This document shows positions 38,356-51,338 of a DNA stretch of 51,338 nt, piece after piece; position 1 is the first letter of the stretch; the number at the start of each line of letters is the position of its first letter. The notes beneath the pieces are model-generated. The model saw only the letters and a program-made list of their open reading frames with translations, searched no databases and was not told where the DNA came from. This stretch comes from Planctomycetaceae bacterium. Lineage in GTDB: Bacteria > Planctomycetota > Planctomycetia > Planctomycetales > Planctomycetaceae. The stretch spans positions 1-51,338 of the forward strand of contig JBDNFT010000660.1 of the NCBI GenBank assembly GCA_041689695.1. The letters are read 5' to 3'. The position numbers were made by a program, and so were the translations under genes.

Positions 38356-38388
38356 ATGGCTGTCAAGTCTTTTAAGAAAGAACAAACA

Positions 38389-39096
38389 ATGAACGCAATC
38401 CTCTACACACGATTCTCGCCTCGCCCTTCGAAAGAGGGGGACGCAGAACGAGTCGCCGCAAATGAAGACGCTGATTCCATCATCCTGCAGCTCGATGTCT
38501 GTAATCGTTACGCCATGATGAAGGGGCTCGTTGTTACAGAGACGATCAAAGACCCCGAGACGTCAGCTCGGCATACTCCGCTGTTTGAGCGAGAAGGCGG
38601 ATCGCGTCTCAAGTTCCTGCCTCGTGGCACGCACGTCCTTTGCTCAAAACTGGACCGCGCGTTCAGGGATACCAGCGATGGACTGCTGAGTACGGACCAT
38701 TTCAGGAAGAACGGCATCATCCTGCATTTCTGCGATCTTGGTGGCTGCACTCTCGACATCTCGTCGCCCGAAGGCCATTTCATGTTCACGATACTTTTGG
38801 CAGCAGCGTCGCTTGAGCCTCTTCGCACAGCAAGTCGAACGAGCCTCGCAATGAAAGACCGCCAGAAGAACGGCCAGCGAATGACCAGCGCGGCCACGCT
38901 CCCGTTTGGGCAAATGGTTGACCCGAATGACGACTCGCTAACGATCCCGTGCCAAGAGGAACTCGACGCCATTATACACGCGAAGTCAATGCGAAAAAAC
39001 AACCTCTCTTTGCGTGATATCGCAAACTACATCGGCCCGATCCGCGGCAAGATCCTCTCGCCGCAATCTGTCAAAAACATGCTCGCAAAAGAATAA
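38389..39096 (+). CDS. small serine recombinase (resolvase/invertase family)
   Basis: MNAILYTRFSPRPS (catalytic Ser region), KLDRAFRD, and C-terminal HTH LSLRDIANYIG...SPQSVKNML. The ATG at 38389 is preferred because the predicted TSS lies after the 38356 ATG. Confidence 0.8.
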   Translation: MNAILYTRFSPRPSKEGDAERVAANEDADSIILQLDVCNRYAMMKGLVVTETIKDPETSARHTPLFEREGGSRLKFLPRGTHVLCSKLDRAFRDTSDGLLSTDHFRKNGIILHFCDLGGCTLDISSPEGHFMFTILLAAASLEPLRTASRTSLAMKDRQKNGQRMTSAATLPFGQMVDPNDDSLTIPCQEELDAIIHAKSMRKNNLSLRDIANYIGPIRGKILSPQSVKNMLAKE

Positions 39097-39144
39097 GCCT
39101 GAAAGTCAGTTTTCCAAATCCTGTTTCAAGAAAGAAGTCCCCAA

Positions 39145-39534
39145 ATGGCATTTTATTACCAAATTGTATCCCAAACGCCCATCAGAGATCTTGCCGTAAT
39201 ATGGATTAGGGAAGGTGGTAAAGTCGCAGACATTCGCCCCGTGATCGCACAAGCTGTTTTGAAACACATACACGAAGACCCGGATGATGATTGTTTTTCT
39301 TCAGGCTTCATTGCGTGTTATCCTGGTGATTATATGGAAATTGATATTGTTGGCTGTCCGTATGCGTTTCCCGGTGCAAAACTCGACGTGTATTATGTTT
39401 TGCCGTGCTCATTGGATCAATGGCGAGATCTCTTCAAGTCAGATAAGTATAAAGCAAAGATTGCGCAGATTCTGGGATCTGAATACCTCGACCTTCAGTT
39501 GACTGAATGGACTCATGGTCCAATGTTTAGTTGA
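39145..39534 (+). CDS. hypothetical protein (accessory)
   Basis: 129-aa ORF. Its stop TGA lies inside the TTGACA of the 34-nt repeat. Confidence 0.5.
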   Translation: MAFYYQIVSQTPIRDLAVIWIREGGKVADIRPVIAQAVLKHIHEDPDDDCFSSGFIACYPGDYMEIDIVGCPYAFPGAKLDVYYVLPCSLDQWRDLFKSDKYKAKIAQILGSEYLDLQLTEWTHGPMFS

Positions 39535-39563
39535 CACTTCCGAAAAAATTACGTAACGTTTGG
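39530..39563 (+). promoter_or_regulatory. 34-nt repeat copy A containing a sigma70-like promoter
   Basis: GTTGACACTTCCGAAAAAATTACGTAACGTTTGG: TTGACA, 17-nt spacer, TAACGT. Identical to 40583-40616. The TTACGTAA palindrome overlaps the -10. Confidence 0.45.
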
Positions 39564-39620
39564 GTTCAATCGGTTGTACAAGAATCGATTCAAAGTCTTT
39601 GCGGGTAATTCCGCACTGAG

Positions 39621-39660
39621 AAACCCACTCCAACGCTCTACCGGTGGACGTGGGTTTTTT
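39621..39660 (+). terminator. terminator-like hairpin in the leader of the 39677 gene
   Basis: AAACCCACTCCA...TGGAcGTGGGTTT followed by a T6 run. It ends 16 nt before ATG 39677. Confidence 0.6.
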
Positions 39661-39676
39661 CATGGAGTTTTCAAAG

Positions 39677-40540
39677 ATGAAAAAAATTCAGTTTTTAGAC
39701 CATACGCCGCTGAAAATTAAGGCAATAAGAAAGAGTGTTGAAAAAATATTTAAGAAAAAGATTTCATATGATGAAATCATTCTTCATCTAAGAAAGAAGA
39801 ACGAAAAGAAAGAGGCATTAACCTGCTTTTTAGAAAAAAAACTAATAGAAGCCGAGATGCCTTTCTTTAATGTTTATCCAAAAGTTGTCGAGGCGCTTAT
39901 TCGAACCTCGCTTTCAATTGTTCCAGAGACAATACCACGATCAATTATCCATAGTCTCGGATCAATCTGCATAAAACTACCTCTTGATAAAAACAATAGA
40001 GGATTTGACTTTTTCATTCTTTCTGTGTTTAACAGCGAAACAATGAAGGAGATGGAAAGCCTAGGATGTTCACGAATTTTACATGTTGAAAACATTCCTT
40101 CAATGGTGGTTTTTGGTCAAGGTGACAACGAGGGATTCACATTAGCCGTGCCGTTGGGTATGCGTGTCAGTGATGTTCAATCTCAAATAAGTGATGAAGC
40201 AATCGTAGATATAGCAAAGCCATTTATCCGCATCGCCCTTGGCGTGATGATGCTGGCCGCTGATCCTGATTACATTAAGCCTGTGCTTCTAAAAGCCGAC
40301 GAAGATAAAACAACACCAATTGAAGAACGAATTGCCAGAGCTCGCAATCGCGGAGTCTATGGGTTCACGATAGGTGAAGAGATCGAACGCTCACCACACT
40401 TCCGCAGGCCGCACTTCGCAATCCGATGGACTGGCAAGGGTGGCGAGATCCCAAAACTTGTCGCAGTTAAGGGTTCGATTGTCGGCAAGAAAGAACTTGT
40501 GACCGTGCCTACTGGCTATGAAAACGACGTGCGAAAATGA
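39677..40540 (+). CDS. hypothetical protein (AT-rich accessory gene)
   Basis: GGAG SD 9 nt before ATG 39677. The Lys-rich N-terminus is visibly AT-richer than its surroundings. C-terminal SPHFRRPHFAIRWTGKGG. Confidence 0.6.
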   Translation: MKKIQFLDHTPLKIKAIRKSVEKIFKKKISYDEIILHLRKKNEKKEALTCFLEKKLIEAEMPFFNVYPKVVEALIRTSLSIVPETIPRSIIHSLGSICIKLPLDKNNRGFDFFILSVFNSETMKEMESLGCSRILHVENIPSMVVFGQGDNEGFTLAVPLGMRVSDVQSQISDEAIVDIAKPFIRIALGVMMLAADPDYIKPVLLKADEDKTTPIEERIARARNRGVYGFTIGEEIERSPHFRRPHFAIRWTGKGGEIPKLVAVKGSIVGKKELVTVPTGYENDVRK

Positions 40541-40587
40541 ACGACATTTCATCGCTCGGTTGGTTCCTGTGCCCACTGTCTGGTTGA
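40538..40587 (+). pseudogene. fossil duplicate of the primase gene start (16 codons: MNDISSLGWFLCPLSG*)
   Basis: About 80% nt identity to 40741-40785. Its ATG overlaps the stop of the upstream gene (ATGA). It terminates at the TGA inside TTGACA of repeat copy B. Confidence 0.6.
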
Positions 40588-40616
40588 CACTTCCGAAAAA
40601 ATTACGTAACGTTTGG
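40583..40616 (+). promoter_or_regulatory. 34-nt repeat copy B containing a sigma70-like promoter
   Basis: Identical to 39530-39563. Confidence 0.45.
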
Positions 40617-40684
40617 CCCGCGAGTTTGTATAGAAGCATAGCTCGCATACAATTCACTATCATCAGCCCCCCGGCTGATCTTTG

Positions 40685-40727
40685 CCCGCCGGTGACGTGC
40701 CTTCTATCACGTTGCCGGCGGGATTTT
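40685..40727 (+). terminator. terminator/attenuator-like hairpin in the primase leader
   Basis: CCCGCCGGTGACGTG / CACGTTGCCGGCGGG gives 15 bp if two G-U pairs form (plus-strand RNA only), followed by ATTTTC. It ends 13 nt before ATG 40741. Confidence 0.5.
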
Positions 40728-40740
40728 CATGGATTGATGG

Positions 40741-43161
40741 ATGAACGATCTCTCGTCGCTGAGTTGGTTCTTGTGCCCAATGTTGTCGGGAACGAAGAAT
40801 CCCGGCAGCATCCTCGGAAAAGAATGGCCGTCAAAGTGTTCAAACGACCCGAGCGTCATCAATTCATGGCCGGCCGGATCCAATATCGGCGTCCTGCTTG
40901 GTTCGAATTCGGGTTTGATCGACCTGGAATACGACAGCGATCTTGGCGAACAGCTCGTCAATGACTGGATGGCTGAATGCGGAAACACGGTAACGCCGAC
41001 ATACAAATCCGCGAAGTCCGTGCATCGCCTGTTCAAGTGGGATGACAAATTCGCACTCGAAGGGGCGAAATTCGGCCACATGGGCGTTGAATTCAGGTTT
41101 GGGTGCAATGTCGCCCAATCAGTTATTCCGCCGTCATTGCACGAATCTGGCGTTCATTACGAATGGCTTGAAGGACTCTCGCCGTGGGAATGCGAAGTCG
41201 CCGCGCTGCCGGAGAATGTCTACAAAAACTTCCTGATTATGAAGTCGTCGCAGGAAAAGGCCGTCGCGAAGGCCGTCAAAATCGACCCGAGATATCAATC
41301 CGGCGATTCACTGCTGACGAAGGCCCGAAACCACATTGAAAAGACAATGGATTGGGAAACAATCCTTGCGGTAGACGGTTGGAAATTCTGCCGCAACCGT
41401 GGAAATGCTCAAGACTGGTGGCGGCCGGGCAAAACGAAAGGCAGCATCAGCGCTACCGTGAATTTCGGCGATTCGAACACGCTGCGAGTGTTCTCGACGT
41501 CCTGCGACCCGCTGGAACCTGATTCATCGTACGACAAGTTCGCGTACCTGTGCATAACGAAGCATGGCGATGACCCGGTCAAAGCAGCGTTCGCCCTGTG
41601 CCCCAAGGAATCTTTGGAGCGTAAGAATCAACCGAAAATCACCGTTAAAAACAGGCCACCCGTCGCGCCCGCCGTGCCAACGCCGCCAGTGGTGCCCGCA
41701 GAAACGGTTCCACCTGCTGTCAAAGCCGTTGGCAACCTGCGGAATCGCGTCAAACCGATTCCGGATGCCGTCGCCAGCGAGCCATCGCCTGACGCGGAAA
41801 TCCGCATAGAAGTGAACCCGGTACCAGCCTCCGAGTGCATCCCCGTAGTCGATGACGCATGGGTTCTCGATCCTGCAGACGACGGTATCGACGATCCCGA
41901 GTCAGACGAAGACTTCATGGCGACGATGGTTCCGAAGACAGGAATGATCCGGGCCGTGTACCAATACTATCAAGTCGTTTCGCAATATCCGTCGGCAATT
42001 TTCGGCATGGCAACAGCTCTGACCTTCTGCCAGACGATGTTCGGGCGGCGAATTCGCAGTCAAACAGACCTTCGCACCAACGATTACAACATCGCGATGG
42101 GCACGACTGGCTGCGGGAAAGAAGCCTGTGAAAACACGATCTACAATCTGTTCAAATCTGTCGGAAAAGATCTCTGCCACCCGTCAGACATGCAATCCGG
42201 GAACGGATTGCTGGCCGCAATCCATGCCCAACCGCACGGGCTCTGGCTTTGCGACGAATTCGGCATAATGCTTGAGTCAATCATTGATCCAAAATCAAAC
42301 CCGCATTTGAAGAACATTGCAGCGCATCTGTTGAAGTTCTACACGAAGGCCAACAAGGATTACGGCGGCGCTGGCCACGCTAGTGGTGTCCGAAACAAAA
42401 CCATTCAACCCCATCTGTCAGTGCTCGGAATGTCCACCCCGCTCGTTCTCAGCTCGATTACAGCAAAACAAGTTGATCAGGGGCTCTTCGGCAGGCTGGC
42501 ATTTTTCGTGTGCCAGGATCGCCCGAAAAAGCGAATCAGCCCTCTTCAGCCGCCGAAAGAGTTTCTGGTCAAGATGGTCCAGAGATGGATCGAATGGGAA
42601 CCGATGCGCCCAGGCAACGTGAACAAAACCCCGAATCCCGAAATGATGTACATGACTCCAGAAGCATGGGATCGCTGGGACAAGCACTCAGACGACATTC
42701 GGGAGAAAATGGACATGGAAGGCGAGCTTCGTGCCGCCGTCTGGGTTCGAGTCGCCGAACGCACAATGAAGCTGGCAATGACGCATCGAGCCGCCCGACT
42801 CGCCGAAGACCCCGCCCACGCCGACTGGGGCTCAATCCACATGGAAATGGAAGACATTGACTGGGCGATCAAGCTGTCAAACCATATCGGGAGAGTCTCC
42901 TGCAACCTGCTGCTCTCCGAAGTTGAAGACCGCCAGATGTCCGAAGCCCAAACAAAAATCCTCACCGCCGTCCGGTCACAGGAATCAATCACGCAGAGAG
43001 TCCTCAGCAGCAACAACAAGAAAATCACCACCGCCCAATTCAACGCCGCCGCCCTCGCCCTCGAAGCCCAGGGACTCATTAAAATCAGCCGTATCAAGCC
43101 CCAAAATGGCGGTCGTGAAAAAGTAGTGTACATCAAGACCAAGAAAGGCGGAGAAGACTGA
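40741..43161 (+). CDS. bifunctional primase-polymerase (AEP) fused to a DUF3987/P4-like helicase ATPase
   Basis: N-terminal AEP motifs GLIDLEYDSD and SAKSVHRLFKW. C-terminal Walker A GTTGCGKE and Walker B LWLCDEFG. Confidence 0.8.
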   Translation: MNDLSSLSWFLCPMLSGTKNPGSILGKEWPSKCSNDPSVINSWPAGSNIGVLLGSNSGLIDLEYDSDLGEQLVNDWMAECGNTVTPTYKSAKSVHRLFKWDDKFALEGAKFGHMGVEFRFGCNVAQSVIPPSLHESGVHYEWLEGLSPWECEVAALPENVYKNFLIMKSSQEKAVAKAVKIDPRYQSGDSLLTKARNHIEKTMDWETILAVDGWKFCRNRGNAQDWWRPGKTKGSISATVNFGDSNTLRVFSTSCDPLEPDSSYDKFAYLCITKHGDDPVKAAFALCPKESLERKNQPKITVKNRPPVAPAVPTPPVVPAETVPPAVKAVGNLRNRVKPIPDAVASEPSPDAEIRIEVNPVPASECIPVVDDAWVLDPADDGIDDPESDEDFMATMVPKTGMIRAVYQYYQVVSQYPSAIFGMATALTFCQTMFGRRIRSQTDLRTNDYNIAMGTTGCGKEACENTIYNLFKSVGKDLCHPSDMQSGNGLLAAIHAQPHGLWLCDEFGIMLESIIDPKSNPHLKNIAAHLLKFYTKANKDYGGAGHASGVRNKTIQPHLSVLGMSTPLVLSSITAKQVDQGLFGRLAFFVCQDRPKKRISPLQPPKEFLVKMVQRWIEWEPMRPGNVNKTPNPEMMYMTPEAWDRWDKHSDDIREKMDMEGELRAAVWVRVAERTMKLAMTHRAARLAEDPAHADWGSIHMEMEDIDWAIKLSNHIGRVSCNLLLSEVEDRQMSEAQTKILTAVRSQESITQRVLSSNNKKITTAQFNAAALALEAQGLIKISRIKPQNGGREKVVYIKTKKGGED

Positions 43162-43183
43162 CGGTGATCGTGACGGCATTTGG

Positions 43184-43210
43184 CGGCAATCGAGCGATTG
43201 CCGATTTTTA
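43184..43210 (+). terminator. terminator after the primase/helicase gene
   Basis: CGGCAATCGagCGATTGCCG followed by ATTTTTA. The stem is built from two inverted iteron copies. Confidence 0.5.
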
Positions 43211-43523
43211 AGATTCGTCTGATGATATGGAATATGATTTTTCCATATTACATACCGTTTCGATTGCCGTCGGTTGCCGACCGATTGACGTCAAGGTAAA
43301 CGGCAATCGACTAGGATAGCTGGGCAGGATAGGCAAGATCACTTTGGTAAGAAACAAAGGAAATCCGAAGGATATAGGGGGGGTGGTTATACTTTGTATA
43401 GTCTCTCAGACCGATTGCCGATAGTTTCTGGGTATTTCTCTTCAGGTCTGTTTCAGGTCAGTTTTACCATCCATATCTCGCTGGTGTTCCCCCTCTGTAG
43501 ACAAAAACTGACGGCAGTCGATT
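43184..43523. repeat. iteron-like 9-mers (CGATTGCCG / CGGCAATCG) plus an AT-rich inverted repeat; candidate replication origin
   Basis: Copies at 43184, 43195, 43261, 43271 (variant), 43281 (variant), 43301, 43411 and 43512 (variant). ATATGGAA-n8-TTCCATAT at 43226-43249. Confidence 0.45.
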
Positions 43524-43645
43524 TCCATATTGCATTTCAATCCATAATCCATACTGTACGGACGGCAAGAAAAACACGCCAACCAAACAACCATTGTCCT
43601 CAACCAAATCCGATGCCGGAATCCCAGCAACGGTAGGAAACAAAT

Positions 43646-43903
43646 ATGATCGAAGAAGCAACGCCGGAAGACATGACCAAGTTCAAAGCACGTAAAGGTG
43701 GAGGCCCGCCTTCCAACACGCGAATCAGAATGGATTTGCTCGATATCGGATCAGGATGCACTATCAAAAACGAGCCTGACATGACAGAAGCAAAACGAAG
43801 AGCACAAGTCATTGCCTCAAATCTCCGTAAGACAGGCAAGCGATTCTCTGTAAGATGGCTCTCTGAGGACAAGGACACCGTTAGGGTGGTAAGAACCCTG
43901 TGA
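43646..43903 (+). CDS. hypothetical small protein
   Basis: AGGAAA SD. Pattern KGGGP...F-V-W...V-V-RT loosely parallels the 49814-50050 product. Confidence 0.5.
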   Translation: MIEEATPEDMTKFKARKGGGPPSNTRIRMDLLDIGSGCTIKNEPDMTEAKRRAQVIASNLRKTGKRFSVRWLSEDKDTVRVVRTL

Positions 43904-43927
43904 CACAATCGGATCGCGTCTCAGGGC

Positions 43928-43964
43928 ATTCTCACGATCTTGGGGACGTCCTGAGAATCTTTTT
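43928..43964 (+). terminator. weak terminator after the 43646 gene
   Basis: ATTCTCA / TGAGAAT stem with a 17-nt loop, followed by CTTTTT. Confidence 0.35.
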
Positions 43965-44198
43965 ATCAAAAATTTGATAGAGGGGGATAAAGGCTAACCC
44001 CGCAGCGTTCGCCACGGCGATGGCAGGGGGCTGGGCAAAAACTCAAGCAGACATGATCGCCGAGCCGGATCGATGCACATGCCAGTTCATCGCCCATCAA
44101 TCAAAAATCCCTGTATTTATGGCCATATTCGCTGTCAATGAGCGTTCCCTCGTTGACACGCACCATGAGTGATATCATATCGACAACAACACAGTGTC

Positions 44199-44233
44199 AT
44201 CGCACTGACTACACACACACCATGCCTGTAGTC
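44199..44233. other. long hairpin in a non-coding region
   Basis: CACTGACTACA-n13-TGTAGTCAGTG (11 bp, extendable by 3 bp after a mismatch). Confidence 0.6.
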
Positions 44234-44380
44234 AGTGTGATACAGGCCGTTATCGGCATGATGACACGGCCATGAGTGCGCATCACCGAGTTGTAGCGCT
44301 GGCTACAATTCCCACCCATCCTCCAACTCCGAGTATCAATCAGCACTCGTACTGCACACATGCACAGCACTCAGACATCC

Positions 44381-44424
44381 GGATCTCACGAACAAACAAA
44401 TAGGATGATGGTATTTGTTCGTGA
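44381..44424. other. long hairpin in a non-coding region
   Basis: CTCACGAACAAACAAATA-n9-TATTTGTTCGTGAG (about 14 bp with a bulge). Confidence 0.6.
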
Positions 44425-44594
44425 GCATCCCTGAGAAATACTTCCGAGCCGAACGTGCGAAAACACTGGCTTTCTCGTGCTCCCGAAACTATTTCCGATA
44501 ATCTTCCGAAATGCAACCGGAATTGTTGTAACATTACCGTCTGAGTTACGTATTGACATGTAGGAACTTCAATCACCCAAACGAGGACAGAAAA

Positions 44595-45014
44595 ATGAAC
44601 AACATCGACGCAGCAAACAGTGCAGTGAACAGCCCGGAACAGTGGGACGTCGCGGCACGAATGATCAGCGAAGGAGTCACAGAGAAGGACGGACGGCTCT
44701 ATCACGACGGTAAGATCGTTGAGCCTCCACTGGCTGACATCGTGGCAAGGACTCGTGGTTTCCAGTGTGCGGAGCGATTTGTGAAGCACCTGCAAGTTGA
44801 GCAAGGAACGACAAGATCAAGCTACGTGTCCAACGGAATGTCAGTCGGGATCGACTGGGAAGTTAACGGAAAGCACGCAACGTTGGTGGCATGTGTCTTG
44901 TTCGCTGACCGGTCTGAAACGCACACGTTGTCGCATCAGGAAGCAATCAATATCGTTCGATCCGCAATCGACCACACAGACTACGCTCGCGTCTACCATG
45001 ACATGATTTCGTGA
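44595..45014 (+). CDS. hypothetical early protein
   Basis: GAGGA SD within the conserved leader TTCAATCACCCAAACGAGGACA. ATG at 44595. Confidence 0.55.
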   Translation: MNNIDAANSAVNSPEQWDVAARMISEGVTEKDGRLYHDGKIVEPPLADIVARTRGFQCAERFVKHLQVEQGTTRSSYVSNGMSVGIDWEVNGKHATLVACVLFADRSETHTLSHQEAINIVRSAIDHTDYARVYHDMIS

Positions 45015-45020
45015 TCTCAA

Positions 45021-45058
45021 CACATCGCCCTGCCTCGCGTGAGGCAGGGATCTTTCAG
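45021..45058 (+). repeat. family-1 hairpin cassette, copy 1
   Basis: CCCTGCCTCgcgtGAGGCAGGG (45028-45049) followed by ATCTTTCAG. Confidence 0.8.
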
Positions 45059-45092
45059 TAACATTTGGCCCGCAAGGCCTTGGAGAATTAAG

Positions 45093-45404
45093 ATGACAAA
45101 CGAATCAATCAACCTGCTGATGTCAATGGTAAACCGAGAACTAGCAGTCCAGAGCTTTGGGTCCATGCTCGCATGGTGTCCAGTCGATGGTGGTGCCGCG
45201 GTCCGAGACGACATCACACATGAGGAGTTCTGTCGCGTTGCAACGCGATTCCCGAGCCGTGACGGATTGCGAATGATCGACGCAATAATCGCGGCCGGAG
45301 TCGGTGGTCATCTTCAAGTCAGTGACCACGGATGCGGAAAAACCAGCATGCAATCGTTCGCAGTTAACGGACGTCTCGCAGCTGACGTAAATCTAGGACA
45401 GTAA
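45093..45404 (+). CDS. hypothetical early protein
   Basis: GGAG SD. The internal ATG at 45093 is preferred because the track start lies inside the hairpin. Confidence 0.5.
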   Translation: MTNESINLLMSMVNRELAVQSFGSMLAWCPVDGGAAVRDDITHEEFCRVATRFPSRDGLRMIDAIIAAGVGGHLQVSDHGCGKTSMQSFAVNGRLAADVNLGQ

Positions 45405-45469
45405 TTCCTCTCGTCACCCATGTACCGCCATAAGCAAGCGGCTACAAACAGCGTGGGTGGCGAACTTGG

Positions 45470-45503
45470 CGGGGCGGCAGTCGATGATTGTCGCCCCGTT
45501 TTC
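45470..45503 (+). terminator. intrinsic terminator after the 45093 gene
   Basis: CGGGGCG-n15-CGCCCCG followed by TTTTC. Confidence 0.55.
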
Positions 45504-45517
45504 TCCAAAGGATAAAA

Positions 45518-45622
45518 ATGATTCCTGCGAATCGACGAACAATCTATCTTCCCACACGCAACCCTGCCTCGCGTGAGGCAGGGATCTTCCTTCAATCACC
45601 CAAACGAGGACAACGACGATGA
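45518..45622 (+). CDS. possible 34-codon upstream ORF read through the family-1 hairpin
   Basis: AAGGA SD 5 nt upstream. Its stop overlaps the ATG of the 45619 gene (ATGA). Translation MIPANRRTIYLPTRNPASREAGIFLQSPKRGQRR. Confidence 0.3.
   Translation: MIPANRRTIYLPTRNPASREAGIFLQSPKRGQRR
45553..45618 (+). repeat. family-1 hairpin cassette, copy 2
   Basis: Hairpin at 45562-45583, then ATCTTCCTTCAATCACCCAAACGAGGACAAC. Confidence 0.8.
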
Positions 45623-45834
45623 AATTGACAATCCGGAACGAATTCACGGGGAATGAAATCACTGTAGATGCCAGCAAGCTGGTCACACGAGCCAAGCTGA
45701 AGTCATGGCGGCGTAAGCTACATGCTGACGACTGCACGAGCGGAGACTCGCTTGGCGGTCGTGGCAAGCAGGTGAACCAGAGTGCATACGATGCACTACT
45801 GATGCGAGCTGAGCAAGTTTTGATGACCGAATAA
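45619..45834 (+). CDS. hypothetical early protein
   Basis: 71-aa ORF preceded by the conserved SD cassette. Confidence 0.5.
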   Translation: MKLTIRNEFTGNEITVDASKLVTRAKLKSWRRKLHADDCTSGDSLGGRGKQVNQSAYDALLMRAEQVLMTE

Positions 45835-45836
45835 CC

Positions 45837-45897
45837 ACACATCGCCCTGCCTCGCATGAGGCAGGGATCTTCCAACCCCCAATCAAGGACAACGAAA
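45837..45897 (+). repeat. family-1 hairpin cassette, copy 3
   Basis: CCCTGCCTCgcatGAGGCAGGG (45845-45866), then ATCTTCC...CAATCAAGGACAAC. Confidence 0.8.
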
Positions 45898-46095
45898 ATG
45901 GACCCGAATGCAACACTATATGCGATGAACGAATCATCCGCGGCCAGGGATTGGTCGGACGCGATTGAGCACGGCACGAACCTGCTCGAATGGCTCGCGA
46001 AAGGTGGATTCCCCCCTGCTGGCTACGTCACCCGTGGCGATGCTGAGTCGCACGTCCGAGCGGTGATCCGCAACTGCGAAGACAACCTGTCATAG
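45898..46095 (+). CDS. hypothetical early protein
   Basis: ATG at 45898 after the AAGGA SD. The track start lies in the hairpin loop. Confidence 0.5.
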   Translation: MDPNATLYAMNESSAARDWSDAIEHGTNLLEWLAKGGFPPAGYVTRGDAESHVRAVIRNCEDNLS

Positions 46096-46148
46096 GCTGG
46101 CCAGTTGGCCGGTGATGCTTTCAAACCCACTAACCAAGGATCATACAA

Positions 46149-46340
46149 ATGCAAACGAAACAGCTTATCACACACAGAAGCTTCAGTAAGATAATGATCG
46201 ACGACGCGTGCTTCGCGCGAATCGACAAGCTCGTAGACGGCACATGGCGACGCACTCAGGGGGCTTCAATCGAAGTTGGTACTGCGGAGCACGCGGCACA
46301 ATGGCTGACAGCGTTGTCGCTGGCGGTCACCCTGTCCTGA
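46149..46340 (+). CDS. hypothetical early protein
   Basis: CCAAGGATCA SD region upstream. Confidence 0.45.
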   Translation: MQTKQLITHRSFSKIMIDDACFARIDKLVDGTWRRTQGASIEVGTAEHAAQWLTALSLAVTLS

Positions 46341-46405
46341 GTCTTTTAACAAGGATCCACTACCCGAATCAGGCGTGACACCAATCCTCCTAACATCACC
46401 TAACC

Positions 46406-46672
46406 ATGGACAAGCAAATGCTCATTAAGATCGACACACACACGGAACTTCTGGACGAGATAATCAGACTCAGACTCGTGCAGGTATCATCGATAAATGC
46501 TGAAGGAAACTGGGTTCCGGTGACGGACCGCAAGGAGTTGTACGCTGCCGCAATCAACGCCTTAATCGACGAGACATGCAATTTTAATCTGAGAGTCCAC
46601 GTGAACAGCGTTTTCGGGACACAGGACGACATCGTCTCGGTTTGCCTCGAAGACGCGCCTGCCGACGACTGA
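46406..46672 (+). CDS. hypothetical early protein
   Basis: 88-aa acidic ORF with no clear SD. Confidence 0.45.
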   Translation: MDKQMLIKIDTHTELLDEIIRLRLVQVSSINAEGNWVPVTDRKELYAAAINALIDETCNFNLRVHVNSVFGTQDDIVSVCLEDAPADD

Positions 46673-46689
46673 ACCTGCCAGCGATCCCC

Positions 46690-46766
46690 CGAGTCTGGCA
46701 GTCTGCGGGCTGCCAGCGTCGGGTAATTTCACCCGGGTTCAAGACTCTTCTTCAGGATCAAATGCA
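46690..46766 (+). repeat. family-2 structured leader, copy 1
   Basis: CTGGCAGtctgcgggCTGCCAG, then CGGGTaatttcACCCG, then TTCAGGATCAAATGCA-ATG. Confidence 0.8.
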
Positions 46767-47360
46767 ATGAAAACCACAACACTAATACGTGATATCGTCG
46801 GCTTGCGTGCAAGCCGACGTCTTCCGGCCGGACTCCCAGACGTCGTTCGATTGTCAACGGACGAAATGATCGAACGCGGATTGACTCGCGTCCAGGCTGC
46901 GAGATTACGAGCATCGCTGAAGCTGGCAATCGAGATCAATGAGCCCGAACACGCCTACGAGCGCGAACGTATCGTTTCCCCAACGTCAGCCATGCGATAT
47001 TGCCAGCGCGAGTTTGCCACGATGGCACGACATTCGGCACAGGAAGAATTCTGGATCGTGACGTTGGATACGAAGAACCAGCCGATCAACAAACACCAAA
47101 TCACGGTTGGCACGCTTCGCAACAGCCTCGTTCATCCGCGCGAGGTTTTTCGGCCGGCAATTGCTGATGCCGCGAACTGCATCCTTGCGATACACAATCA
47201 TCCGAGCGGTGATCCAACTCCCAGCGATCAGGACATAAGTGTCACAAAACGGCTTCACGAAGCCGCCGAGATTATCGGAATCCCAGTCGTTGACCACATC
47301 ATTGTGGCCGGTGAGAAGGCGCTTAGCATACAGGAATGGCTAGGCGCAACAGGACGCTGA
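46767..47360 (+). CDS. radC: RadC-like JAB/MPN domain protein
   Basis: HNHPSGDPTPSDQDISVTKRL (JAMM-like HxHPSG) and EEFWIVTLD. Confidence 0.85.
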   Translation: MKTTTLIRDIVGLRASRRLPAGLPDVVRLSTDEMIERGLTRVQAARLRASLKLAIEINEPEHAYERERIVSPTSAMRYCQREFATMARHSAQEEFWIVTLDTKNQPINKHQITVGTLRNSLVHPREVFRPAIADAANCILAIHNHPSGDPTPSDQDISVTKRLHEAAEIIGIPVVDHIIVAGEKALSIQEWLGATGR

Positions 47361-47365
47361 GATTG

Positions 47366-47443
47366 TTCGAGTCTGGCCATCTGCGGGTGGCCAGCGTCGA
47401 GCAATTTCGCTCAGTTCAGTCTTTACTTTCAGGATCAAATGCA
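47366..47443 (+). repeat. family-2 structured leader, copy 2
   Basis: CTGGCCAtctgcgggTGGCCAG (compensated stem), then GAGCaatttcGCTC, then TTCAGGATCAAATGCA-ATG. Confidence 0.8.
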
Positions 47444-47902
47444 ATGACTACAAAGAACCAGCTATCACTCGTTACACGGCGAGTTCGCGAACTACGCAAG
47501 GCCATGAAGGAATCAGAGATTGCTGAACGTGCCTACTTAGCGCGAGCGTGCAAGGAGACTCGTGACAATCTCCCAAACATTGTGTTAGACATGACACGCA
47601 TGGCGCTGGCAGGTCTGTTGACACCGGAGATCCTGTCCCAGGTCAGGCATAGCAGTTCGACAATAACAATCGAGATCGAACGCGAAGATCTCGTGAAGTG
47701 GCGGAAAATCGGCCATCTGTCTGCGACTTACAAATCATTCGACAAAACCGATGCTGATGGCGTGAATTGGATCAGGGTGACTGTGGAGGTCCAATTCCTG
47801 ACTGCGATTCAAATTCGATATCGAAGACAACTCCCAGCCAGTTGCAGCTGCAAGGTCACTGACGAGATCAGCACATACAAAACATTGACATGCAACACCT
47901 GA
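47444..47902 (+). CDS. hypothetical early protein
   Basis: ATG at 47444 directly after the family-2 leader. Confidence 0.55.
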   Translation: MTTKNQLSLVTRRVRELRKAMKESEIAERAYLARACKETRDNLPNIVLDMTRMALAGLLTPEILSQVRHSSSTITIEIEREDLVKWRKIGHLSATYKSFDKTDADGVNWIRVTVEVQFLTAIQIRYRRQLPASCSCKVTDEISTYKTLTCNT

Positions 47903-47908
47903 GAGCCA

Positions 47909-47956
47909 CCAATTCCCCCCGTGCGTGACAGGCGCGGGGACTATTGGTTTCTTTCC
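47909..47956 (+). terminator. intrinsic terminator after the 47444 gene
   Basis: CCAAT..CCCCGTGC-n7-GCGCGGGG..ATTGG followed by TTTCTTTCC. Confidence 0.55.
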
Positions 47957-47985
47957 AAGTATTCAAGATTTGCGGGATCACGACA

Positions 47986-48219
47986 ATGGCAATAATTGTG
48001 ACAATCGAAGACGTTCATAGACTGGCAGTGATAGCAATCGCGTTACGCATTTATGAGTCAGACAGCTGCTATTTGCCACCCGAAGAAGGCTGGGATGTTT
48101 GGCGAGCCGTCTGGCGAGAATCAGGACGGCTTTTCAGAATCTATGAAAGCGAAGCTCGCCGCGTTCAAGATGGCTGGCGGCATCGCCGCGAAAGCGATCA
48201 AAGCACAATCTGTTCTTGA
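47986..48219 (+). CDS. hypothetical early protein (3' part ambiguous with an overlapping frame)
   Basis: ATG at 47986. An alternative frame, 48053-48235, also reads like protein. Confidence 0.4.
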   Translation: MAIIVTIEDVHRLAVIAIALRIYESDSCYLPPEEGWDVWRAVWRESGRLFRIYESEARRVQDGWRHRRESDQSTICS

Positions 48220-48235
48220 TGCGTTGGGGGAATGA

Positions 48236-48312
48236 TTCGAGTCTGGCAGTCTGCGGGCTGCCAGCGTCGAGCAATTTCGCTCAGTTCAATATCTACTTTC
48301 AGGATCAGAACA
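48236..48312 (+). repeat. family-2 structured leader, copy 3
   Basis: CTGGCAGtctgcgggCTGCCAG, then GAGCaatttcGCTC, then TTCAGGATCAGAACA-ATG. Confidence 0.8.
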
Positions 48313-48678
48313 ATGAACAAATATCAAGCAATCGCAATCAACCACGGATCAACAGCGAAAACAACGGCCGGCATTGTCTGGTTTTTCAGAGCGAATCCAG
48401 CGGCACGGAAGGATCTGGCGAATCTCTGCCCAAAACCAATGTCCAAATGGGAATGGAAAGCTGTGCAGGAAGAGCGCAAGCGAAACCCAGACGCAAAGCG
48501 AGCCAGAGACAGAGACGACACTATGTTCCGCTCTGTGTACCTGAGGAAACTCAGGGCTGAAGAAAAAAAGCTACGGGAATACGATCGTTTTTCCGTGGCG
48601 GGTATCTGTGATTTCGTTGACACGCTGTCAGGACGGCAACAGCGCCTCGATTTTCGCAATGCGCTGTTGCCGTCCTGA
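48313..48678 (+). CDS. hypothetical early protein (basic)
   Basis: ATG at 48313 after the family-2 leader. The 3' end contains the 20-bp inverted repeat. Confidence 0.55.
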   Translation: MNKYQAIAINHGSTAKTTAGIVWFFRANPAARKDLANLCPKPMSKWEWKAVQEERKRNPDAKRARDRDDTMFRSVYLRKLRAEEKKLREYDRFSVAGICDFVDTLSGRQQRLDFRNALLPS

Positions 48679-48680
48679 CA
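48626..48680. repeat. perfect 20-bp inverted repeat with a 15-nt spacer
   Basis: TGTCAGGACGGCAACAGCGC (48626-48645) and GCGCTGTTGCCGTCCTGACA (48661-48680). The stop codon 48676-48678 lies inside the right arm. Confidence 0.9.
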
Positions 48681-48759
48681 TATGCCGCGAGGCTGTTGTG
48701 CCAGGCGATGAACACTATCATGGGTGGCGGGAAATGTACGGCATCGACGACTGAGTAAT

Positions 48760-48826
48760 CACAACCCACCCGGCCTCAACGTGAGGCCGGGATCTTTCAG
48801 CAATCACACACCAAAGGAACTGCGGA
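48760..48826 (+). repeat. family-1 hairpin cassette, copy 4 (compensated stem)
   Basis: CCCGGCCTCaacgtGAGGCCGGG (48769-48791), then ATCTTTCAGCAATCACACACCAAAGGAAC. Confidence 0.8.
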
Positions 48827-49294
48827 ATGAATTCTCCCCACCGTGATGTATCTGCGATTGCCATGCAGGTAAATGAGTATTTGCTGTTGAATGGAGTGAA
48901 TAAGAAGCTTTTGCTTCTTACAGTCAATTGGTCACACTGCTGGCAGCGGTTGGTTGTTATCGCGAATCGGAAAACAAGGCGGTACACGATTGCCAGCGGG
49001 GACGATGCACGGCTGAGTAAAGCTCAACTTAAACTGGTTCTGAAAGGCGTGCGTCTTGAAATAGAAAAGTTCATAAAAGAGCATGATGTTCGTCTCAGGA
49101 GATACGAGTCCGAGATGGCTGAAGAGGCGGAGTTCATGCGTTTCGTCTCAATTGCGAATGAGGCCGGTCTGAGGACGGCAGTTTACGACAAAGGTAAGTT
49201 TTCGATTGCATGTAGTTTCGATCAAGCGCTCAGGATTGTGCGCTTGATCGCAGATAACCGGGACAGTGTTTTTACGGAGCCTGCTTCAACGTGA
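48827..49294 (+). CDS. hypothetical early protein
   Basis: 155-aa ORF. Its 3' end overlaps family-1 copy 5. Confidence 0.55.
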   Translation: MNSPHRDVSAIAMQVNEYLLLNGVNKKLLLLTVNWSHCWQRLVVIANRKTRRYTIASGDDARLSKAQLKLVLKGVRLEIEKFIKEHDVRLRRYESEMAEEAEFMRFVSIANEAGLRTAVYDKGKFSIACSFDQALRIVRLIADNRDSVFTEPAST

Positions 49295-49331
49295 GGCCGG
49301 GTTCTTCCACCAGCCAATAAGGACAATCAAA
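49279..49331 (+). repeat. family-1 hairpin cassette, copy 5 (degenerate)
   Basis: CCTGCTTCaacgtGAGGCCGG has one mismatch and one wobble. It is followed by GTTCTTCC...CCAATAAGGACAATC. Confidence 0.65.
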
Positions 49332-49574
49332 ATGCGGCATGAAAGCATTTGCAGCGATTGCGGAAAGTTGATTGCTCACAACAGCAATCTCTGTCCGTGT
49401 TATCAAGAAAGAAACAAACAGGTACACGAAGTGGGCGGTACGAGCTGCTCGGTGGATGACGAAAACAGACTGGGTGATGATTCCGCAATTGTGATAGGTC
49501 ACGCTCCAGGCCGTGGGGATGGAACACCAGTGAAGCTAAGGGACGACGCGCGGCACTACGGCCAAGAGAAGTAA
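49332..49574 (+). CDS. small Cys-containing protein (hypothetical)
   Basis: MRHESICSDCGKLIAHNSNLCPC. AAGGA SD upstream. Confidence 0.5.
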   Translation: MRHESICSDCGKLIAHNSNLCPCYQERNKQVHEVGGTSCSVDDENRLGDDSAIVIGHAPGRGDGTPVKLRDDARHYGQEK

Positions 49575-49813
49575 AAATCTCGATTGACATTTCATAGCGA
49601 TTTTGAAACACTTTCGCGAATAATAAAAAACGGTCTGCATCGACCGGTGGATGACTGACCCACAAATCGATCCGGTAATCATCCAGAGCCGTGCTATCGC
49701 GTCGTCGAGAGAAGATCCAAGGGCACGATGACTGCTATTGCCCGCAATCGGATGAGGGGACAGGTTGTTTCATTGTTTCAGCTTGTTCCCGCAGTCTATT
49801 TTTGGAAACCAAA

Positions 49814-50050
49814 ATGAAGATCGAAAACATCCCGATGCCTGGCCTCAAAAGTAAAGGCCGGCCGGCAAAATATGACTTCGCGTCTCTGCCGGTCGTGACA
49901 GCCACGGACACGCCGTGCATGACGATCGAAAATGCTCCGTATCATGCTGTCTATGCCTGTGCCGCGAGGTACTCGCAGAAAAATCCCGGAACTGTTTTCC
50001 GTGTCGAAAGAGCCGGAAAGCGAAAGATTCACGTTTGGCGTACGAAATAA
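49814..50050 (+). CDS. hypothetical small protein
   Basis: The internal ATG at 49814 (MKIENIPMPGLKSKGRPAKYDF...) is preferred over the track start at 49691. Confidence 0.5.
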   Translation: MKIENIPMPGLKSKGRPAKYDFASLPVVTATDTPCMTIENAPYHAVYACAARYSQKNPGTVFRVERAGKRKIHVWRTK

Positions 50051-50075
50051 TTCCGAAAAACGTACGAAACATGTA

Positions 50076-50103
50076 TTGACGTGCTTAATTCAGTCGTTAG
50101 ATT
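50076..50103 (+). promoter_or_regulatory. sigma70-like promoter upstream of the small membrane ORF / tRNA / csrA cluster
   Basis: TTGACG, 16-nt spacer, TAGATT. Preceded by TTCCGAAAAACGTACGAAAC boxes. Confidence 0.4.
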
Positions 50104-50120
50104 CTCTGGAGTGACGAACA

Positions 50121-50291
50121 ATGTTGATCTTTGAGGTTTTGGATTTCGCGATGATACTGGCGTTCTGTTTGGGGATGCTGATGATCGTGATTGAATGCGT
50201 GGCCACGATGGTCGATCACTTCTCGACGTCGAGGCTGAGCCAGAAAGACTTCGCGAGGATGATTAAAGAGAACGAGCCCGGAGACCCTTGA
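50121..50291 (+). CDS. 56-aa membrane protein (hypothetical)
   Basis: Hand-translated as MLIFEVLDFAMILAFCLGMLMIVIECVATMVDHFSTSRLSQKDFARMIKENEPGDP. GGAG SD. Below the ORF-track cutoff. Confidence 0.45.
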   Translation: MLIFEVLDFAMILAFCLGMLMIVIECVATMVDHFSTSRLSQKDFARMIKENEPGDP

Positions 50292-50325
50292 TCAGGTCCG
50301 AAGTGCATGATGCGTCCGGGTTTTT

Positions 50326-50397
50326 GGCTGGGTAGCTCAGCGGTAGAGCGTCATGGTGAAAACGTGAAGGTCGCAGGTTCGATTCCTGCCCCAGCCT
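50326..50397 (+). tRNA. tRNA-Phe (anticodon GAA)
   Basis: Hand-folded cloverleaf. Acceptor GGCTGGG/CCCAGCC, D arm GCTC-AGCGGTA-GAGC, anticodon arm TCATG-GTGAAAA-CGTGA, T arm GCAGG-TTCGATT-CCTGC. No encoded CCA. Confidence 0.8.
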
Positions 50398-50441
50398 ATG
50401 ATGAATTTCGTTTCAATTTAGTATCACGGAGGATTGTTTAT

Positions 50442-50669
50442 ATGTTAGTTCTAAGTCGCAAAGTGAATGAAGAAATCACCATTGGTGACGACATTCGAAT
50501 CATGGTGATCGAGGTTCGGGGAGACAAAGTCCGCATTGGCGTTGATGCCCCAAAAGACGTTCCAATACACCGAAAAGAAATTTTCGGCGCAATCAAGGTG
50601 GCTGCGGATGCGGCGATGGCGGCGATGGCGGCCGCTCAATTAGAAACGGATGGTGGGAAAATGGAATAG
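50442..50669 (+). CDS. csrA: carbon storage regulator CsrA/RsmA homologue
   Basis: MLVLSRKVNEEITIGDDIRIMVIEVRGDKVRIGVDAPKDVPIHRKEI aligns along its length with E. coli CsrA. GGAGGA SD at about 50428. The track ORF start at 50307 runs through the tRNA. Confidence 0.9.
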   Translation: MLVLSRKVNEEITIGDDIRIMVIEVRGDKVRIGVDAPKDVPIHRKEIFGAIKVAADAAMAAMAAAQLETDGGKME

Positions 50670-50720
50670 TTCATCGCTAGCAGTTTCGGGGGAGTCTGTG
50701 CAAAACGCGCCCCCACTTGT

Positions 50721-50793
50721 CGCAGCGTGGAGAAGTTGGAATCTCACTCGGTTCATACCCGAGAGGTCGCCAGTTCGAATCTGGCCGCTGCCA
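50721..50793 (+). tRNA. tRNA-Met (anticodon CAU), initiator-like
   Basis: Hand-folded: CGCAGCG-TG-GAGA-AGTTGGAA-TCTC-A-CTCGG-TTCATAC-CCGAG-AGGTC-GCCAG-TTCGAAT-CTGGC-CGCTGCC-A. Has a C1xC72 mismatch, A11:U24 and three G/C pairs closing the anticodon stem. No encoded CCA. Confidence 0.75.
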
Positions 50794-51134
50794 ATCCCAG
50801 ACATAGTTTAACCGTCTTGATTTGAGTGCGCATTAGAATCAAGTCAGAACAAGAGTTAGTAGCTCTAGGTCCGAGTATTGAGTCTCGGTGTGCGGGAATG
50901 AGGCGCAGCTCTGGTGAGCAACAAGATCCATAACCTTGGAGGGGCGGTTCGGATCCAGCACAGCCAAGTCAATGAAAAATGGCGGTCTCCCTGTCATGCC
51001 TTAAATGCTCCAGGGGTGAATCGGCACGGTTCTGTCGCGATGAACCAACCGATCGAGGATTTCGACGTAAGCTAATTCTCACGCGGCTAAAAAATGAGGC
51101 CGCAATTTTTTTGACAGAATGATGAGGTGCTTAA

Positions 51135-51338
51135 TTGATCGAATACGAAATCATCGCGGTTCCCCGACCGCAGGGCAGCAAGAAACACGTCGGTCGGGGA
51201 ATCATGGTTGAGGTGTCGAAGCACGTCGCGAACTGGCGGGCCTTCGCGCGGATGTGCGCTGTCCCAGCGATGGCAGGTCGCCCTGTTGTTCACAAGCCGA
51301 ATGCGTTAGTCGTCGAGGTGGCGTTTTATTTTGACCGA
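51135..51338 (+). CDS. rusA: RusA-like Holliday junction resolvase (5' part, runs off the window)
   Basis: TTG start 5 nt after GAGGTG. IIAVPRPQGSKKH...NWRAFARMCA...ALVVEVAFYFDR fits the phage RusA N-terminal pattern (P.PKgRPR...; v.l.i.fy..rp). Confidence 0.55.
   Translation, partial: MIEYEIIAVPRPQGSKKHVGRGIMVEVSKHVANWRAFARMCAVPAMAGRPVVHKPNALVVEVAFYFDR

Follow-up and report, generated by a model that had tools for sequence, protein, structure and literature searches.

The early precursor transcript of bacteriophage T7 carries five RNase III signals, and bacterial RNase III substrates in general have an ideal length of 22 bp, with many under 20 bp; internal loops in such substrates lead to single-strand cuts that leave stabilizing 3′ hairpins (PMC3867540). 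In T4-type phages, promoter-early stem-loops (PeSLs) are defined by a sigma-70 consensus promoter together with a working terminator (PMC2839356, PMC4122927). The SAS/ESAS elements of Cluster K mycobacteriophages, present in 11–19 copies per genome, consist of a 13-bp sequence (GGGATAGGAGCCC) located 3–8 bp ahead of start codons and preceded by imperfect inverted repeats of 17 bp, and their function is presumed to be translational (PMC3203893). The present analysis concerns a hairpin-containing leader element of approximately 80 nt, three copies of which (family 2) precede three small genes in a tailed-phage contig of 51,338 nt from a Planctomycetaceae bacterium (JBDNFT010000660.1, assembly GCA_041689695.1), which was analysed at its full length and is referred to below as the window. 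The stems of this element are maintained by compensatory change, and the three copies are read here, with a probability of about 0.5, as a lineage-specific transcribed intercistronic RNA module that would serve message processing and stability and provide a standard ribosome-binding leader.

By analogy, the element appears to work like T7 RNase III sites, PeSLs and SAS/ESAS elements, but to be a member of none of these groups. As with the T7 sites of the R1.1 type, several irregular intercistronic hairpins of about 20 bp with an internal loop are predicted within one phage operon, copies 2 and 3 matching in size and in loop position, and the host possesses RNase III. Prediction thus agrees with the T7-type pattern of an irregular intercistronic hairpin of about 20 bp (at least 11 bp) containing an internal loop, with copy 1 being shorter and weaker. 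In contrast to the T7 sites, with which there is no sequence similarity, the element has symmetric 2×2 loops, belongs to a phage of a planctomycete host, and combines a competing, compensated downstream hairpin with a fused ribosome-binding leader, cleavage here being a prediction only. The likeness to PeSLs lies in conserved repeats of approximately 70–90 bp with a GC stem–loop that flank orphan genes in what appears to be a plastic region, and in the ability of such repeats to mediate gene-cassette indels between strains, here seen for a sister repeat (family 1). Unlike PeSLs, the copies contain no detectable sigma-70 promoter and no evident terminator, and no indel bounded by them was seen in the 11 strain contigs. 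With SAS/ESAS, the element shares a ribosome-binding-site block a few bases before the starts of some non-structural genes, upstream inverted repeats and a single orientation. It differs in the block itself (TTCAGGATCA rather than GGGATAGGAGCCC), in its arms of 7–9 bp with fixed loops as opposed to 17-bp imperfect arms with variable spacers, in its three copies and in the host phylum, so that the two are analogous and not homologous. Finally, the radC RNA motif is a structured 5′ untranslated region (5′ UTR) element of radC genes in mobile elements, and one copy of the present element is likewise structured in the presumed 5′ UTR of a mobile-element radC. However, the copies have no match to this motif in Rfam 15, and the regions upstream of radC in the host genus are unrelated to the element.

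Sequence and layout of the element

The three copies occupy the gaps preceding the ATGs at 46767, 47444 and 48313 (Table 1). Including the start codon, they span 46688–46769, 47366–47446 and 48236–48315 (80–82 nt), with a mean column identity of 90 % in the alignment and pairwise likeness of 85–95 %. All are oriented as the genes are, fill the whole intergenic gaps and keep a fixed distance to the start codons. The parts that are invariant across the copies in the window comprise the loops of the two hairpins (TCTGCGGG and AATTTC), the linker CGTC and the ribosome-binding block TTCAGGATCA, which has three exact matches in the window (every other match carries at least one mismatch) and is separated from the ATG by N6–7. 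The spacer of 12–13 nt ahead of this block is pyrimidine-rich, varies freely and is the most variable part of the copies. A scan with the core pattern returned three exact occurrences in the window, the remaining window matches each having two mismatches, and three occurrences in the entire 5.86-Mb metagenome-assembled genome (MAG), compared with none for the reversed control.

The preliminary description of this DNA had placed a repeated element directly upstream of each of the three ATGs, and exactly three copies were indeed recovered. Its common start, (T)TCGAGT, holds for copies 2 and 3, but copy 1 begins CCCGAGT; similarly, the conserved leader motif that it gave as TTTCAGGATCA reads CTTCAGGATCA (CTTCAGG) in copy 1. 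The hairpin 1 loop, described as invariant, is so within the window, but not among strains: the only variant found in any family 2 copy is an A inserted at 48252/48253 in the apical loop of copy 3 (TCTAGCGGG), which is present in 6 of 10 strain contigs (e.g. L288:3307-3387).

Open reading frames (ORFs) running through copies 2 and 3 read them in different frames, which, together with the natural 1-nt indel, rules out a coding role. Beside copy 1 only, 12 nt upstream of it, an extra CTGCCAGCG 9-mer at 46675–46683 repeats exactly the 3′ arm of hairpin 1, with CG added; it may be a recombination scar or a competitor that pairs with the 5′ arm of hairpin 1.

Table 1. Positions of the element, its parts and other features in the window
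Feature	Positions	Strand	Remarks
Copy 1	46681–46766 (core 46688–46766)	+	Between TGA of small orphan gene (46670–46672) and RadC-like gene; covariance model score 103 bits
Copy 1, hairpin 1	46695–46716	+	CTGGCAGTC / GGCTGCCAG; 9 bp including a U-G pair; UGCG apical loop
Copy 1, hairpin 2	46720–46735	+	CGGGT AATTTC ACCCG; overlaps 3′ strand of helix P1 (46688–46692 pairs with 46719–46723)
Copy 2	47359–47443 (core 47366–47443)	+	Covariance model score 108.9 bits
Copy 2, lower stem	47359–47370 paired with 47397–47408	+	12 contiguous bp; takes in last two bases of radC stop codon
Copy 2, hairpin 1	47373–47394	+	CTGGCCATC / GGTGGCCAG; differs from copies 1 and 3 by two adjacent compensated pairs
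Copy 2, hairpin 2	47399–47412	+	GAGC AATTTC GCTC; alternative to lower stem
Copy 3	48229–48312 (core 48236–48312)	+	Covariance model score 105.4 bits; 1-nt loop insertion after 48252 in many strain contigs
Copy 3, hairpin 1	48243–48264	+	
Copy 3, hairpin 2	48269–48282	+	
Ribosome-binding block TTCAGGATCA	46751–46760, 47428–47437, 48298–48307	+	6 nt before ATG at 46767
Degenerate family 2 leader half (3′ only)	47954–47985	+	TTCAAGA...GGGATCA-N6-ATG; 10.4 bits; behind terminator-like hairpin 47917–47939
RadC-like JAB protein, 197 aa	46767–47360	+	Downstream of copy 1
Orphan, 152 aa	47444–47902	+	Downstream of copy 2
Basic orphan, 121 aa	48313–48678	+	Downstream of copy 3
DarB-like antirestriction protein (methyltransferase + SNF2 helicase), 4771 aa	1027–15342	−	28 % of contig
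Terminase large subunit	32916–34931		
Serine recombinase, resolvase/invertase type, 246 aa	38356–39096	+	Replication module
Prim-Pol/DUF3987 primase	40741–43161		3.5 kb upstream of copies
CsrA and two tRNAs	50.3–50.8 kb		

Compensatory changes in the stems

The arms of hairpin 1 read CTGGCAG/CTGCCAG in copies 1 and 3 and CTGGCCA/TGGCCAG in copy 2, while those of hairpin 2 read (C)GGGT/ACCC(G) in copy 1 and GAGC/GCTC in copies 2 and 3. Throughout the 5′ 48 nt of the copies, every substitution falls in a stem with pairing retained, and the loops and linker are free of them. Each of the 13 pairs is of a standard type in every one of the four distinct sequences (100 % of cells), and four pairs, distributed over hairpins 1 and 2, have changed on both sides; the earlier claim of stems that vary while pairing is kept was upheld. 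None of 500 shuffles matched the four double-sided changes, and slid controls were 18–48 % paired. In simulations, four random substitutions produced two doubly compensated pairs in 10⁻⁴ of trials. This pattern is seen in two independent comparisons (copy 2 with copy 3 and copy 1 with copy 3), the chance figure of approximately 10⁻⁴ applying to each copy comparison.

Predicted folds

Hairpin 1 is predicted to reach 9 bp by the addition of a conserved U-G pair and a C-G pair that close a UGCG apex, and to be enclosed by a further helix, P1, in which alignment columns 1–5 pair with columns 32–36. The strands of P1 are UUCGA/UCGAG in copies 2 and 3 and CCCGA/UCGGG in copy 1, which amounts to one compensated pair and a half-change from U-G to C-G. 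Since P1 and hairpin 2 use the same bases, they are mutually exclusive, and the G/A at column 36 covaries with both of its partners (column 2 with 36, and 36 with 47).

The picture of two hairpins, as originally drawn, holds for the isolated copies, but when upstream flanks are included one long bulged hairpin is predicted, with which hairpin 2 competes. With 12–13 nt of upstream flank, RNAalifold returns a single long hairpin of 19 pairs (5 + 5 + 9) interrupted by two 2×2 internal loops, in which the AATTTC ‘loop’ becomes the 3′ strand of the outermost helix. This bulged hairpin comprises 19–21 bp in copies 2 and 3, that of copy 2 being 21 bp overall (12 + 9 bp around a 2×2 loop). It is favoured over a fold with enforced hairpin 2 by approximately 9 kcal/mol in copy 2 and 7 kcal/mol in copy 3, and by about 1 kcal/mol in copy 1; hairpin 2 thus represents a mutually exclusive alternative fold with compensated pairs of its own. 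The long hairpin starts at or near the upstream stop codon, within approximately 15 nt: in copy 2 its lowest pairs take in the final two bases of the radC stop, in copy 3 it spans the stop of a 60-aa ORF, and in copy 1 it begins 9 nt past the stop.

The plus-strand folds of copies 1–3 have predicted energies of −31.9, −26.4 and −29.3 kcal/mol (z-scores −3.2, −2.4 and −3.9), and the minus-strand folds −28.1, −22.2 and −21.8 kcal/mol (z-scores −2.8, −2.4 and −1.8). The conserved pairs include several of the G-U type, and in several one-sided changes G-U has become A-U; such pairs and changes work only in plus-strand RNA and therefore fit a sense RNA better than DNA or an antisense RNA. Position, orientation and G-U content agree with the RNA-level reading that had been put forward from the outset.

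Distribution and strain variation

The proposal to build an Infernal covariance model from the three copies was carried out. Run on the window with filters off, the model (R2) found only the three full copies, and it detected nothing in the 4 kb past the window end. No convincing copy was found with it in 53 other genomes of the genus, in five loci of primase relatives and 53 IMG/VR loci recovered by a primase profile, or in 150 genomes of the order, where five hits of 25–27 bits proved unrelated on inspection, one of them being tRNA-like. Likewise, an exact-pattern scan of viral contigs and a blastn search against phage records revealed no copy, while loose-pattern scans of metagenome and genome contigs yielded chance matches only, none with the stems or flanks. 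The element had been taken to correspond to no named motif, and this stands: at gathering thresholds, only two tRNAs in the window match Rfam 15, and even at E ≤ 10 in the region 44400–49600 nothing (the radC motif included) matches at the copies. For the orphan genes that follow copies 2 and 3, homologues are confined to the genes' own clusters, and hence no diverged leaders can be recovered through them.

An exact-protein look-up identified 11 contigs of the same phage from other samples, 98.9–100 % identical, all of which keep the three copies. Strain diversity amounts to about ten variable sites in the 46–50 kb interval of the window, which is too low to test constraint. No indel or rearrangement bounded by family 2 copies was seen in these 11 contigs. 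A 500-bp segment at 45055–45554, comprising a 103-aa orphan gene, a U-tract terminator and a mini-ORF, is missing from seven strain contigs (those named are L286–L288 and L290–L292; L289 does not reach the region), and its junction lies inside a 35-nt overlap of two family 1 repeats (45020–45057 and 45554–45591). Being bounded by family 1, this indel indicates that repeated intergenic cassettes are real sites of gene gain and loss here, as has been described for PeSLs (PMC2839356, PMC4122927).

More distant relatives of the phage, with primases 55–60 % identical, carry other GC hairpins right after stop codons and a leader of their own, AAAACATTGGGG. In one of these (L281:12780-15130, the same DNA as L282 and L298; primase 59 % identical), four GC hairpins with compensated stems (GGCAGAGGA.../GGCAGCGG...) lie directly 3′ of stops, and the AAAACATTGGGG leader, unrelated in sequence to family 2, precedes start codons. 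The hairpin-plus-leader architecture is therefore common to the phage group, whereas the sequences are not.

Promoter and terminator signals

A consensus scan of 39000–51338 found no sigma-70-like site in any copy, in agreement with the preliminary description, which had noted no −35/−10 pair within the elements; by eye, the best hexamers resembling −35 and −10 boxes in the copies have 3–4 of 6 matches and the wrong spacing. No U-tract follows either hairpin in the copies, and a terminator scan does not report their stable GC hairpins. U-tract terminators are present elsewhere in the phage (40685 and 45470–45503). The lack of both signals in the copies, when both are present elsewhere on the contig, argues against a promoter–terminator cassette. 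An identical repeat of approximately 33 nt, TTGACACTTCCGAAAAAATTACGTAACGTTTGG, with a sigma-70-type appearance (TTGACA-N17-TAACGT) is located at 39531–39563 and 40584–40616 and is absent from the family 2 copies.

Proposed function and alternative explanations

According to the favoured reading, the copies would be transcribed on the plus strand within the mRNA of an accessory or early array of about 12 genes, and each would fold into an outer helix, P1, a 2×2 internal loop and the 9-bp hairpin 1 with its UGCG apex, the 3′ strand of the lower stem being alternatively able to form hairpin 2. The long hairpin may direct message processing and stability in the manner of the T7 RNase III sites, and could also block 3′ exonucleases. 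Cleavage at or close to the internal loop would give an upstream message that ends in hairpin 1; on the downstream message, the 3′ strand released by the cut would lie at the new 5′ end and fold anew as hairpin 2. The fixed TTCAGGATCA-N6-7-ATG leader would then ensure uniform translation initiation for unrelated genes, including the host-like radC, and, as repeated DNA, the copies may provide homology for cassette exchange, as seen for family 1. An RNase III-type model is favoured because of the irregular hairpin of approximately 20 bp, the loop situated about 9–10 bp below the apex, the intercistronic site, a cut that would leave a 3′ hairpin and the RNase III encoded by the MAG (contig C1007:4188-4556).

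A more elaborate mechanism, which is put forward tentatively and is considered rather improbable, holds that the hairpin at the stop codon is either cut by an enzyme of the RNase III type or pulled open by the ribosome as it terminates, with both products being protected. The strand freed by the cut or by the ribosome would form hairpin 2, which would explain why the weaker hairpin 2 is compensated at all, and the three-way covariation of columns 2/36 and 36/47 would mark two mutually exclusive helices. A newly captured gene, such as radC, would thereby receive a ready-made leader.

If the RNA module exists as proposed, a portable unit would punctuate an operon of interchangeable orphan genes, and would determine the ends, stability and translation of the messages without recourse to promoters or terminators. 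The concepts behind PeSLs and T7 RNase III sites would thereby be extended to planctomycete phages, whose hosts have barely known gene-expression signals, and a compact, testable case would be at hand of two competing helices with one covarying base in common. The scope is modest, given three copies, a single phage lineage and no wider family.

Several points weigh against the RNA module. So far, the element is restricted to a single phage lineage, and with no homologue found beyond this species-level lineage, statistics of the R-scape type are impossible. There are only three paralogous copies (four distinct sequences), and each covarying pair represents a single event. The apparent covariation of P1 columns 1–2 may reflect only a non-homologous flank, and the lower stems, as predicted, are irregular and weakest in copy 1. 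The Shine–Dalgarno sequence is predicted to be sequestered in copy 1 and free in copy 2; owing to this variation in accessibility, no single translational-control fold is common to the copies, and a shared hairpin that sequesters it was rejected. The size and loop criteria for RNase III are those described for bacterial substrates (PMC3867540), and may not be the rules of planctomycetes. Transcription, transcript ends and cleavage are likewise all deduced from the DNA. Moreover, intrastrand template switching in palindromes can yield symmetric changes without selection.

The last point leads to the possibility that the repeats are functionless, having spread recently or arisen as by-products of cassette recombination, with palindromes kept perfect by template switching or gene conversion. 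The restriction of only three copies, 85–95 % alike, to one lineage, the single event behind each compensated pair, the partial 9-mer duplicate beside copy 1, which points to sloppy recombination, and a strain diversity too low (about ten variable sites in 4 kb) to reveal constraint are all compatible with this explanation. Nevertheless, it seems distinctly unlikely, as the substitutions in the 5′ 48 nt all fall in stems while the adjoining 13-nt spacer varies freely, two independent hairpins are both doubly compensated, and the copies share a fixed register to start codons and a ribosome-binding block. A PeSL-type composite, in which the hairpins would terminate or attenuate upstream transcription and the 3′ half would be a promoter restarting it, so that each gene forms its own unit with a short leader, is unlikely too. 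The setting is the same, PeSLs also being indel-mediating repeats that lie among orphan genes of plastic regions (PMC2839356, PMC4122927), and family 1 mediates the 500-bp indel in this phage; in addition, planctomycete promoter rules are poorly known, and a non-sigma-70 motif such as TTCA-N12-CTTTCAGG could have been missed. Yet the copies contain no promoter-like site, although TTGACA-N17-TAACGT sites occur elsewhere in the phage, and no U-tract behind their hairpins, although canonical terminators are found nearby (45470–45503); the spacer expected to hold the −10 box is the most variable part, and a transcription start within the 3′ block would leave almost no leader.

Two further explanations operate at the level of DNA. 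The 7-N8-7 palindrome could be a double-stranded operator or recombination site for a dimeric phage protein, for example a regulator or the small serine recombinase encoded at 38356–39096; the palindrome is perfect, its centre is conserved and it occurs three times in one orientation. What makes this quite improbable is that copy 2 alters both half-sites symmetrically, with only complementarity being kept, and that several pairs are G-U, which would be mismatches in DNA. In addition, the 1-nt insertion common among strains, harmless to a hairpin, shifts the spacing of the half-sites, approximately 85 nt are conserved, with a second compensated hairpin and the ribosome-binding block among them, and no rearrangement between copies was seen in the 11 strain contigs. 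The symmetric arm change in copy 2, the loop insertion and the G-U pairs thus speak against a duplex DNA site with fixed spacing, and hence for the RNA module. Alternatively, the hairpins might act in single-stranded DNA, as priming sites for the Prim-Pol/DUF3987 replicase of the phage or as promoters of the N4 type. The ssi signals ssiA and ssiB of RSF1010 and the early promoters of the N4 virion RNA polymerase are hairpins with conserved flanks, which the copies resemble, and the phage has its own Prim-Pol primase-helicase 3.5 kb upstream. This is nonetheless very improbable: the phage lacks a virion RNA polymerase, its giant 4771-aa protein being a DarB-like methylase-helicase, and the loops have 4–9 nt as opposed to the 3 nt (on a 5–7-bp stem) of N4-type hairpins. 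Furthermore, all copies lie on one strand, tied to start codons and the ribosome-binding block, and G-U pairs are disfavoured in DNA.

Other candidates were rejected. A tRNA fragment or attP site was suggested by the T-loop-like TTCGAGTC, but there is no T-stem and no tRNA call. By eye, the copies lack the GTTRRRY/RYYYAAC core of an integron attC, and each copy has a single GGA, which does not fit a CsrA target with two GGA sites. The candidate GCTC for a lambda-type boxA is not conserved in copy 1, and for a trans-acting RNA complementary to the loops only scattered 7–8-mers were found. A mimic of CRISPR repeats (an RNA anti-CRISPR) was dismissed, as the MAG contains no CRISPR-like array with the element sequence; in the 53 genus genomes there were scattered single hits with up to three mismatches, the control being of similar order.

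Genomic context

The window represents an entire tailed-phage contig of 51 kb, the longest in a MAG of 1307 contigs, the rest of which is Planctomycetota-like, one contig carrying a PSCyt1/PSCyt2/PSD1 protein. Tetranucleotide usage correlates between phage and MAG (r = 0.96), and the phage probably infects a planctomycete. The 3′ 300 nt of the phage radC (the JAB-domain half, 47040–47340) are 73–79 % identical at the DNA level to chromosomal radC in 21 of 24 genus genomes, and the same match is found in MAG contigs C66 and C543, while the N-terminal 90 aa of the phage RadC are unrelated. This identity to host-genus genes fits both the host link and the capture of a host gene; judging from its sequence, the phage radC resembles a piece of a host gene that has been put behind a phage leader.

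The copies are situated in a plus-strand array of about 12 small genes (44.6–49.6 kb), nearly all of them orphans. The hairpin-plus-leader design is not unique to family 2 within this array, which is punctuated throughout by such cassettes: every gap contains a hairpin followed by a leader, and the hairpins include five of family 1, a small one at 46096 and the terminator-like hairpin behind which the degenerate leader half lies (Table 1). The presence of this 3′ half behind a different hairpin indicates that the cassettes are modular, with family 2 being the most elaborate version.

The overlapping ORFs at 47986–48219 and 48053–48235 are rivals for the gap ahead of copy 3; in other assemblies, the gene callers picked the 60-aa frame, whose stop abuts copy 3, while the 77-aa frame has the usual GGGATCA-N6-ATG leader. 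A perfect 20-bp inverted repeat at 48626–48680 spans the stop of the 121-aa gene and gives only spurious Rfam hits (a microRNA model, 28 bits against a threshold of 97 bits). Single-nucleotide polymorphisms among the strains are concentrated in mosaic patches at 45613–45709 and 51164–51306, with approximately 20 sites per 100 nt, in otherwise nearly invariant kilobases, and the patch at 45613 begins right after a family 1 repeat, which suggests patchwise recombination.

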